Source: a phage
Sequence record: NC_042307.1
DNA: 64,000 nt
Strand: one strand, 5' to 3'
Shown here: piece by piece, positions 50,847 through 51,757 of the stretch
Layout: each line of letters opens with the position of its first letter
Numbering within the stretch: the first letter of the stretch is position 1
Program-made: the position numbers and the translations under genes
The notes under the pieces: generated by a model
What the model saw: only the letters and a program-made list of their open reading frames with translations
What the model was told of the DNA's origin: nothing
Databases searched by the model: none

Positions 50847-50871
50847 GGCTCTGGGCATATCACCCAGAGCC
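50847..50871 (-). terminator. hairpin upstream of tape measure start, followed on minus strand by UUUUUAUUGGGAAAAAUAAAAU-AUG
   Basis: 9-bp stem GGCTCTGGG/CCCAGAGCC. Confidence 0.55.
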
Positions 50872-50907: not shown

Positions 50908-51363
50908 TTACCGTGCACGAGATCTAGCATGTGGCTTAACGTTAGGTATTCTACCGTTTTGCGGCTTATGCTTCTCAGCACGTTTACGTGCAGCGTCTAC
51001 AGCTTTAGCATCAAATATATTGATGATGTGTAGAACAAATTCTTTTTCTATAGGATCGGTAATCCCATAAATATCGAATAAAACACCTAGGGCAGCCTTG
51101 TCTTTACCTATAAAGATAGGGAAGTCACCAGGTATGAAACAGTCAACTAGACTATTATAAATATTCATACTAATAGCTACAATAGGTGGAAAATCTTCAA
51201 GTTCAACAGGCATAGCCTTAGGATCAGGTTCTATACCCATTGACTCACAAAGTATTAAATATTGTTGTTTAGTCATTTTAGATGCTGAGCTTTTAATACA
51301 CTTATCTGCAAAATCAGCAACAGCATCTAGTAGTTCTTTACGCTTTTGAGCTACGAAAAGTGT
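50908..51363 (-). CDS. tail assembly chaperone, T-frame ORF; frame open upstream of its ATG (51276) back to 51363 and no SD, probably a frameshift extension of 51338..51757
   Basis: frame verified codon by codon; overlaps upstream gene by 24 nt. Confidence 0.45.
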   Translation of the reverse strand, partial: TLFVAQKRKELLDAVADFADKCIKSSASKMTKQQYLILCESMGIEPDPKAMPVELEDFPPIVAISMNIYNSLVDCFIPGDFPIFIGKDKAALGVLFDIYGITDPIEKEFVLHIINIFDAKAVDAARKRAEKHKPQNGRIPNVKPHARSRAR

Positions 51364-51757
51364 CTAAGTGGAACACTGTCTGGTTGATCCAAGAATCAAA
51401 CGCAGCAGAGTTCTGCATAAGCATTACAGCATTATCACGACTAAATGAAACTTCAGTAGCAGGATCAGCATCTGTTTCAATCAGCATCAGTTTTTCAACA
51501 TCGCCTACAGTCAAACCAGTCCAACCTTTAATCGCAGCATCAACGAAAGCCTCAATAAACTTATCGTCATCCTGTACTTGAATTAGAGTACCATTAACCC
51601 ATTCATCGCGTTTGGCAGAAGAGACAACACGCTTAGAAGTAGCACGAGACATGTAGTTAAGCTCTAGCTTAAAGTTTGGCATACCTGGGTATGAAAGAGT
51701 AATAGTACGGGTATCAAGAGTAATATCTTTTAAGTTAATCATTTTTAATTTCTCCAA
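51338..51757 (-). CDS. tail assembly chaperone (G-like)
   Basis: 139 aa; position upstream of tape measure. Confidence 0.45.
   Translation of the reverse strand: MEKLKMINLKDITLDTRTITLSYPGMPNFKLELNYMSRATSKRVVSSAKRDEWVNGTLIQVQDDDKFIEAFVDAAIKGWTGLTVGDVEKLMLIETDADPATEVSFSRDNAVMLMQNSAAFDSWINQTVFHLDTFRSSKA

Follow-up and report, generated by a model that had tools for sequence, protein, structure and literature searches.

The stretch of DNA analysed (the window) comprises 64,000 nucleotides of phage sequence record NC_042307.1. The region considered here lies on its minus strand, where the genes run in the order tail tube protein (pb6-like), 300-aa tail protein, G, T, terminator and tape measure protein (Table 1), an order shared by relatives and one that bears out the placement of the G and T open reading frames (ORFs) upstream of the tape measure gene in the initial annotation. 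The region shares 97.8% identity with Salmonella phage Shivani and 97.0% with Escherichia phage DT57C (Tequintavirus, Demerecviridae), and DNA-level matches to it were found in 513 phage records, with the arrangement conserved in more than 500. The homologue of the T ORF is T5.142 (YP_006970.1), and a terminator is annotated just after T5.142 in the T5 RefSeq record.

Table 1. Features of the G-T region, with coordinates in the window and the basis of each assignment.
Feature	Coordinates	Strand	Basis or description
Tail tube protein gene, pb6-like, 468 aa	52642..54048	-	ORF and annotation in relatives
Tail protein gene, 300 aa	51735..52637	-	ORF between the pb6-like gene and G
Shine-Dalgarno (SD) sequence GGAGA of G	51751..51755	-	Sequence read; ribosome-binding site annotated at the same place in Shivani
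G-like tail assembly (tape measure) chaperone gene	51338..51742	-	ORF and translation, identical annotated proteins in relatives, PHROG 313
Overlap open in both frames, 26 nt	51338..51363	-	Bounded by T-frame TAG 51366-51364 and G stop codon TAA 51340-51338
Candidate +1 shift site ACU_UUU_CGU	51353..51361	-	TTTCG invariance and documented +1 site type
'Linker' from G stop to ATG 51276, 61 nt	51277..51337	-	Coding in the T frame only; encodes KELLDAVADFADKCIKSSASK
T ORF as usually annotated	50908..51276	-	ATG 51276 to TAA 50908, 122 aa
Predicted G-T fusion CDS	50908..51742, join(51742..51356, 51354..50908)	-	Same interval as the two-piece joined CDS of Shivani
Intrinsic terminator-like hairpin, 11 bp (7 GC) and T-run	50847..50871	-	Between T and the tape measure gene
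Tape measure protein gene, pb2-like, 1226 aa	47144..50824	-	ORF and annotation in relatives

The G-like product has 134 aa (15.1 kDa) and a C-terminus that reads ...FHLDTFRSSKA. In the initial annotation the G-like gene had been given as 51338..51757 and the T ORF as 50908..51276, and a check of the sequence and its ORFs confirmed both sets of coordinates on the minus strand, the former being the longest form of the G ORF with TTG at 51757 as its first codon. The start of the gene, however, was not upheld: ATG 51742 is almost certainly the true start rather than TTG 51757, since the SD lies 8 nt upstream of it and the resulting length of 134 aa matches the annotation of relatives. The stop codon of the upstream 300-aa gene (TAA 51737-51735) overlaps this start.

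The T frame lies at +1 (equivalently -2) relative to G and not at the usual -1, as had been stated initially, and the -1 frame is closed by a TAG at 51353-51351. No stop codon interrupts the T frame for 29 codons before ATG 51276, as far back as 51363, and it overlaps the end of G by 26 nt. No ATG, GTG or TTG occurs in this frame from 51363 down to ATG 51276, and there is no SD in the 18 nt (AAAAGCTCAGCATCTAAA) that precede that ATG, as the initial annotation had also noted, nor before the T-ORF ATG in any of the lineages examined that have it. Given the lack of an in-frame start codon, ribosomes could ordinarily reach the pre-ATG sequence only from G. In shuffled sequences a stop-free stretch of 29 codons arises by chance with P ~0.13 and is unremarkable alone, so that the openness of the T frame is not significant in itself and the case rests on comparison with relatives.

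In Shivani, DT57C and T5 (T5.143), identical 134-aa proteins carry the name 'tape measure chaperone' or 'tail assembly chaperone', and two separate CDS are annotated in T5 RefSeq (T5.143 and T5.142), DT57C, KookSpook, JLBYU43 and GEC_vB_N7. Shivani carries, alone among the records examined, a two-piece joined 'tape measure chaperone' CDS whose span of 832 nt is consistent with a +1 join; the joined CDS goes unmentioned in the genome announcement of this phage. The announcement of Sugarland describes the chaperone as having no predicted frameshift signal, 'similar to T5', citing Zivanovic et al. 2014 (PMC6256483). In profile searches, G and T match the two halves of PHROG 313 ('Tail assembly chaperone', a 258-position profile), with G at 12-141 (E=7e-33) and T at 170-258 (E=2e-17), and the profile therefore represents fused proteins; the T ORF also matches PHROG 3914 (E=1e-56). 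Pfam gave no match for the G or T protein of the window, and PF08890 (Phage_TAC_5) matched weakly in 10 of 29 family members (best E=0.0013). A PDB sequence profile search returned only the designed protein 6m6z (E=0.0016), which was judged spurious, a query with the predicted 277-aa fusion found no matches in a protein database, and the AlphaFold2 single-sequence model of G (mean pLDDT 33.8) was unusable. The pair is placed in the G/GT chaperone class, as a putative member, by its synteny, its architecture and the PHROG match and not by fold.

Coding signal upstream of the annotated T start codon

Variation upstream of ATG 51276 was examined in a set of 30 T5-like sequences, consisting of the window, Shivani, DT57C and 27 IMG/VR genomes. 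Within 51337..51277 there are 21 variable sites, distributed 15/5/1 over T-frame codon positions 3/1/2 (chi-square 14.9, p=6e-4); the corresponding counts in the same 30 sequences are 74/20/13 in T after the ATG and 87/26/4 in G in its own frame. As judged from this pattern of substitution, the 61-nt stretch before the ATG is evolving as T-frame protein-coding sequence.

Homology across more distant relatives follows the same boundary. In tblastn searches with the 151-residue translation of the T frame, alignments begin at residue 1-3 of the extension, right after the overlap, with identities of 52% in Klebsiella phages, 42% in Vibrio phage PG07 and 34% in Vibrio phage Thalassa (overall range 34-53%), and homology after the overlap spans Klebsiella, Vibrio, Proteus, Pectobacterium and Pantoea relatives. 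In the protein alignment, a conserved helical segment, KRKELLDAVADF or its equivalent, lies directly after the overlap, and the pattern is kept in distant relatives. All 30 T5-like sequences have the ATG at 51276, and My1 and PL1 have an ATG that aligns with it, but the position is occupied by a non-start codon in six other lineages, where the Met of 'SKMTK' is replaced by Ile (Klebsiella phages), Val (Pantoea phage AAS21), Leu (Vibrio phages PG07 and D260) or Phe (Thalassa and PVo5). The T starts annotated in the genomes of these lineages are arbitrary internal or overlapping picks. Together with the PHROG 313 profile that spans both ORFs, the T-frame coding of the pre-ATG stretch and the tblastn homology support the G/GT-type arrangement that the initial annotation had suggested for the predicted pair.

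Conservation of the candidate shift site

The junction between G and T was compared across 11 deep lineages in which T is in the +1 frame: the T5-like phages, Klebsiella phages IME260 and PWKp9S, Pectobacterium phage My1, Pantoea phage AAS21, Proteus phage PL1, and Vibrio phages PG07, D232, D260, Thalassa and PVo5. The G proteins of the lineages other than the T5-like phages are 28-60% identical to that of the window. T is in the +1 frame in 11 of 11, with TTT_CGT or TTT_CGA inside the overlap in every one, and TTTCG is the sole invariant block of the overlap in the junction alignment, a block held by the site ACU-UUU-CGU that had been put forward as a candidate from the window alone. The overlap arrangement itself is kept in the 30 T5-like sequences, in the 10 further deep lineages and in ~28 unique metagenomic relatives; conservation of the overlap, proposed initially as a check within T5-like genomes, thus extends to far more distant Demerecviridae. 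Aeromonas phages also fit the arrangement if TAG is read as a sense codon. Aeromonas phage Akh-2 was considered as a counter-example on account of two T-frame stops after its TTT_CGA, and was set aside: the stops are all TAG, which also occurs inside its G and tape measure genes, the genome encodes a tRNA-Sup-CTA, and TAG is probably read as sense in this phage.

Because C 51355 comes directly after the TTT at 51358-51356, tRNA-Phe (GAA) has a cognate codon in the +1 frame as well, and this feature is invariant across all lineages. In My1 and D232 the overlap is reduced to 14 nt, AC NNC TTT CGT TAA, within which re-pairing of tRNA-Phe from UUU to UUC is the sole cognate +1 re-pairing. The codon that would occupy the A site is CGT in the window and CGT or CGA in all 11 lineages, and it is never AGR, though local AGR usage is 37-83%. 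From local codon usage, the probability that Phe is encoded by TTT in ten lineages is ~0.0025, a rough figure as the lineages are related, and the probability that Arg is always CGN and not AGR is ~2e-4, likewise rough since the lineages are not fully independent. Elsewhere in the window, TTT is strongly avoided before pyrimidines, with 110 TTT vs 192 TTC codons before C or T and 371 vs 182 before A or G (odds ratio 0.28, p=8e-18).

Among the 30 T5-like sequences, ACTTTTCGTAGC is invariant and its flanks vary. At 51362 a C/T polymorphism is silent in G and changes Thr to Ile in T, and at 51349 a T/C polymorphism changes Ser to Pro in G and is silent in T. The constraint on the sequence therefore switches from one frame to the other between these two positions, which bracket TTT_CGT.

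Nearby stimulators of a shift were sought in the same region. The RNA from 51375 to 51270 folds no better than shuffled sequences (z=-1.55), the shift region has no Rfam match, and neither GGAG nor GAGG, as an SD-like stimulator, occurs within 20 nt upstream of the site in any lineage. A small CUUUU/AAAAG hairpin was considered as a stimulator and rejected, being absent from the other lineages; a conserved 9-bp stem ends 3 nt before ATG 51276. The CGU codon is the commonest Arg codon of the phage (210 CGT vs 156 AGA), and its abundance means that the A-site codon is not 'hungry'. Without a hungry codon, an SD-like stimulator or a convincing nearby structure, the efficiency of any shift may be very low.

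A further line of comparison came from ~45 IMG/VR contigs, some of them 100-105 kb in length and so as large as a T5-like genome, that encode G homologues with 28-39% identity to that of the window. The T frame is -1 in all of these metagenomic relatives, and an in-frame canonical X_XXY_YYZ heptamer (A_AAU_UUU or G_GGA_AAC) is present in 24 of the 28 unique -1 sequences, with U-runs in the other four. The heptamers sit on conserved Gly/Ala-Asn-Phe codons that are homologous to Asp-Thr-Phe of T5. The Phe codon of these sequences is TTC or TTT where it lies outside the heptamer, as in the G_GGA_AAC group, and is always TTT inside the proposed slip site. The -1 sequences group together as a single clade when G proteins are placed in a neighbour-joining tree. 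This sister clade is independent evidence that a G-T fusion arises in the family from slippage at this place and that the direction of the shift has changed once. A 1-nt deletion could convert the -1 arrangement to +1, from AAC TTC TCG AAG as in the -1 relatives to AAC TTT CGA AG; the Vibrio phages have AAC TTT CGA.

Predicted G-T fusion and comparable systems

These observations suggest that the G and T ORFs probably form one G/GT tail-assembly-chaperone unit, with a predicted fusion produced via a +1 slip at UUU_CGU. Most ribosomes would translate G and terminate at its TAA. A small fraction would slip by +1 when peptidyl-tRNA-Phe is on UUU (51358-51356) and CGU occupies the A site, the GAA anticodon re-pairing from UUU to the overlapping UUC (51357-51355) so that C 51355 would not be read as the first base of a codon, and decoding would resume in the T frame at GUA (51354-51352). 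The predicted product is a G-T fusion of 277 aa (31.0 kDa) with the junction ...FHLDTF-VAQKRKELLD.... The occurrence of the shift, its exact site, its low efficiency and the roles of G and T are all inferred. On the pattern of lambda gpG/gpGT, the presumed client of both G and G-T is the tape measure protein, which the G part would coat, and the rare T domain would bring in its presumed partner, the tail tube protein, as lambda gpV suggests by analogy (PMC5009743).

Tail assembly chaperones of this type have been reviewed (PMC5009743, covering Levin 1993 and Xu, Hendrix and Duda 2004, 2013 and 2014), and in lambda the ratio of G to GT is ~30:1. As lambda needs such a ratio, a weak, unstimulated site would suffice here. 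In both lambda and the window, two overlapping ORFs lie between the tube and tape measure genes, the second without a start of its own; a low-level shift near the end of G would give G-T, and the products are expected to be non-virion chaperones. In contrast, lambda uses a -1 shift on the tandem heptamer G_GGA_AAG, whereas a +1, single-tRNA UUU_C slip is predicted here, and the proteins of the window have no detectable sequence similarity to lambda G or T. Other directions of shift are known for G-T pairs, namely +1 in HSTV-2 and -2 in phage Mu (PMC5009743, PMC3498833). Both G/GT chaperone frameshifts and +1 variants of them are already known; the predicted pair described here would belong to that class, mostly unrecognised so far, and would not be a new kind of system.

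The closest match to the candidate site is that of influenza A PA-X, in which a +1 shift on UCC_UUU_CGU occurs at ~1%, has been verified by mass spectrometry and has no known stimulatory structure (PMC3498833). Similar UUU_CGN sites, with CGN preferred in the A site, are present in fijiviruses, chronic bee paralysis virus and amalgaviruses, and the E-site UCC of influenza is stimulatory, not essential (PMC3498833). The two cases share an identical UUU_CGU core, re-pairing of P-site tRNA-Phe to UUC, a CGN codon in the A site and the lack of an obvious stimulatory structure, and as a PA-X-like site without such a structure, the site in the window would be expected to shift at an efficiency near 1%. 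They differ in that translation here is bacterial, the CGU codon is abundant and not rare, and the function is unrelated. The E-site UCC is also not shared, the window having ACU and relatives having AAC, ACC, UCC or UUG, and the exact influenza 9-mer UCC_UUU_CGU is found only in Pectobacterium phage My1.

In bacteria, UUU_Ynn is described as especially prone to +1 shifts, with no stop codon needed (PMC5009743, citing Fu and Parker 1994 and Schwartz and Curran 1997). Shift-prone UUU_Ynn sequences have been described in E. coli argI and proposed for Yersinia YopN-TyeA (PMC5009743, PMC3789692), although mutation of the YopN site did not abolish the hybrid (PMC3789692). These cases share with the present one the host type and the tetranucleotide logic of UUU followed by a pyrimidine, but they are errors or of uncertain use, whereas the site here has been kept throughout a phage family and leads into a conserved ORF. 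The 1997 work of Schwartz and Curran is reported to have tested the UUU-CGU dicodon itself. The prfB (RF2) type of +1 shift is a poor parallel, the A-site codon here being CGT and not a stop, with no SD-like stimulator ~3 nt upstream. Among tail chaperones, a +1 shift at TTT-CGC has been predicted in those of the HF1 group of haloarchaeal myoviruses (PMC7230728). There too, pairs of tail chaperone ORFs need a +1 shift, but these viruses are archaeal, have contractile tails and unrelated sequences, and their case is likewise a prediction only; the present case goes beyond it in having a sister clade with -1 heptamers at the homologous codon.

T5 is a model siphophage. A conserved UUU_CGN +1 site would call for correction of the two-gene annotation that the T5 RefSeq record shares with almost all of the 500 or more relatives, and would give the T-domain proteins their true N-terminus. 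If true, it would also be a bacterial, family-wide example of a minimal PA-X-type +1 signal. Further, a switch from -1 to +1 at one homologous codon would show that selection maintains the G:GT pair and not a particular slip mechanism.

Alternative readings of the overlap

The predicted +1 slip at UUU_CGU has to be weighed against several other explanations. It is unlikely that G and T are two independent genes, with T translated from ATG 51276 alone, no fusion made and the open extension incidental. Such a reading would agree with the conservation of the ATG throughout the T5-like set and its alignment in My1 and PL1, with the two CDS annotated in nearly all records and with the published remark that T5 lacks a frameshift signal (PMC6256483). 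A free T is also viable, and could be what the T5-like phages, with their conserved ATG, naturally make, since a 2026 study, in which neither T5.143 nor frameshifting is mentioned, found that T5.142 expressed alone from its ATG is a soluble, stable and biologically active protein that triggers defence by RorSlfn5, a Schlafen tRNase whose Ig-like sensor domain it binds (PMC13056530). However, the ATG has no SD and is replaced by non-start codons in six lineages, the 61 nt before it evolve as T-frame coding sequence with homology that begins at the overlap, textbook slippery heptamers occur at the same place in the sister clade, and a single PHROG profile covers both ORFs. The same loss of the ATG bears on a milder version, limited to the T5-like phages and compatible with the fusion, in which G-T is made by the +1 shift and free T is made in addition from ATG 51276. 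Conservation of the ATG within this group, the functional free T5.142 as a defence trigger (PMC13056530) and the conserved stem just before the ATG, which could modulate access to it, would all fit two such products, but a start with no SD that is buried beside a stable stem is unfavourable and lineages without the ATG do not need free T, leaving this version doubtful, if a good deal more plausible than independent genes.

Fusion by a shift elsewhere in the 26-nt overlap, whether through +1 slippage of tRNA-Lys on AAA_G (51346-51343), a slip at the stop codon or a -2 shift, is improbable, slightly more so than the absence of any fusion. AAA_G is present in the T5-like sequences and tRNA-Lys reads both AAA and AAG, and a natural -2 shift is used for the G-T pair of phage Mu (PMC3498833). 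Against this, the Klebsiella relatives have AAA_T, AAA_G is absent from the other lineages, most of which end G before such a site, and the reduced overlap of My1 and D232 has no room for it. There is also no cognate codon for -2 re-pairing of tRNA-Phe or tRNA-Arg, and the T-frame protein is left unchanged by the Ser/Pro polymorphism at 51349. Slippage of RNA polymerase on the T-run, giving an mRNA one base short that is translated normally into the fusion, is the least credible explanation and very improbable. A four-T run (51359-51356) is present at the site in T5-like phages, but it is too short, and in 9 of 11 lineages the run is only 3 T. Known transcriptional slippage sites need much longer homopolymers. 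Cases of transcriptional slippage have been described elsewhere (PMC5009743). The AAA_G slip, the -2 shift, the stop-codon slip and transcriptional slippage were all rejected as lacking conservation across lineages.

With the +1 slip at UUU_CGU as the preferred reading, the observations could be joined in a broader, tentative interpretation, for which confidence falls just short of even. An ancestral -1 tandem slip on G_GGA_AAC or A_AAU_UUU would have flipped to a +1 single-tRNA slip on UUU_CGN at homologous Asn-Phe codons, the stimulator-free PA-X motif would be a bona fide +1 signal on bacterial ribosomes throughout Demerecviridae, and the trigger of RorSlfn5 in vivo would be the rare G-T fusion and not the free 122-aa T. 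Whether free T or low-abundance G-T is the sensed species bears on how T5.142 is sensed by the Schlafen tRNase (PMC13056530). The two sites of +1 slippage considered here predict different trans-frame peptides: a shift at the UUU site would give the diagnostic Asp-N peptide DTFVAQKRKELL (DTFVAQK...), and the alternative shift at AAA_G would give DTFRSSKRKELL.

Codon choice and the proposed shift cassette

Across all stop-free stretches of at least 150 codons on both strands of the window, a mechanical rather than curated set of ORFs, TTT was strongly avoided before pyrimidines (odds ratio 0.28, p=8e-18), with 110 TTT versus 192 TTC codons preceding C or T and 371 TTT versus 182 TTC codons preceding A or G. 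This avoidance fits selection against shift-prone UUU_Y. In Pectobacterium phage My1 (L090:1244-1257), the sequence TCC_TTT_CGT, which is the exact influenza PA-X cassette, is followed immediately by the G stop codon, and the overlap between G and T is only 14 nt.

Start regions of T and G

The first ATG of T, at 51276, lies 3 nt past the end of a 9-bp stem, for which pairing was 100% among 22 T5-like sequences while the loop was variable. Base changes within the stem comprised one compensatory replacement (U-A to C-G) and one U-A to U-G, and the shuffle control was weak (30/500). At 26 nt from the slip site, the stem is too distant for a classical stimulator of frameshifting, but it might limit internal initiation at this ATG. 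The 300-aa tail gene upstream of G ends in TAA (51737-51735), and this stop codon lies within the sequence around the start codon of G, ATGATTAA (51735..51742, minus strand), an arrangement suggesting that these two genes may be translationally coupled.

Features around the first ATG of T and in the gap separating T from the tape measure gene
Feature	Coordinates	Strand or phage	Description
9-bp stem	51279..51329	minus	UAGAUGCUG (51329-51321) pairs with CAGCAUCUA (51287-51279)
Terminator-like hairpin, strong	50847..50871	minus	11 bp, 7 GC, T-run; after the chaperone pair and ahead of the tape measure gene
HNH endonuclease T5.141	L032:7778-8530	T5	lies in the gap
Unannotated ORF, about 245-257 aa	L004:1655-2428, L006:1696-2457, L007:1612-2349	Vibrio relatives	same gap

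The gap ahead of the tape measure gene

The content of this gap differs between relatives, being empty in the window whereas in T5 it holds an endonuclease gene. A terminator is annotated at the position of the hairpin in T5, and the 'hypothetical protein' of 33-37 aa annotated across the hairpin in several relatives is probably spurious.

Annotation and host names in related records

In-frame TAG codons were numerous within the G, T and tape measure genes of Aeromonas T5-like phages (loci covered: L008, L098, L099 and L100 of Shenzhenvirus phages; L101:49061-49132). One TAG of phage TS3 aligned opposite Gln in Akh-2, whose own record lists tRNA-Sup-CTA. TAG is probably a sense codon in the late genes of these phages, likely read as Gln, and such reading would account for the fragmented or absent annotation in their records. 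The T5-like chaperone region was also present, at 86-100% identity, in records named Campylobacter phage C13, Corynebacterium phage CPphiVTCCBPA_418 and Listeria phage LM 4-14-1 (search hits H25/H61, H89/H151 and H90), for which contamination or mislabelled hosts seem likely.
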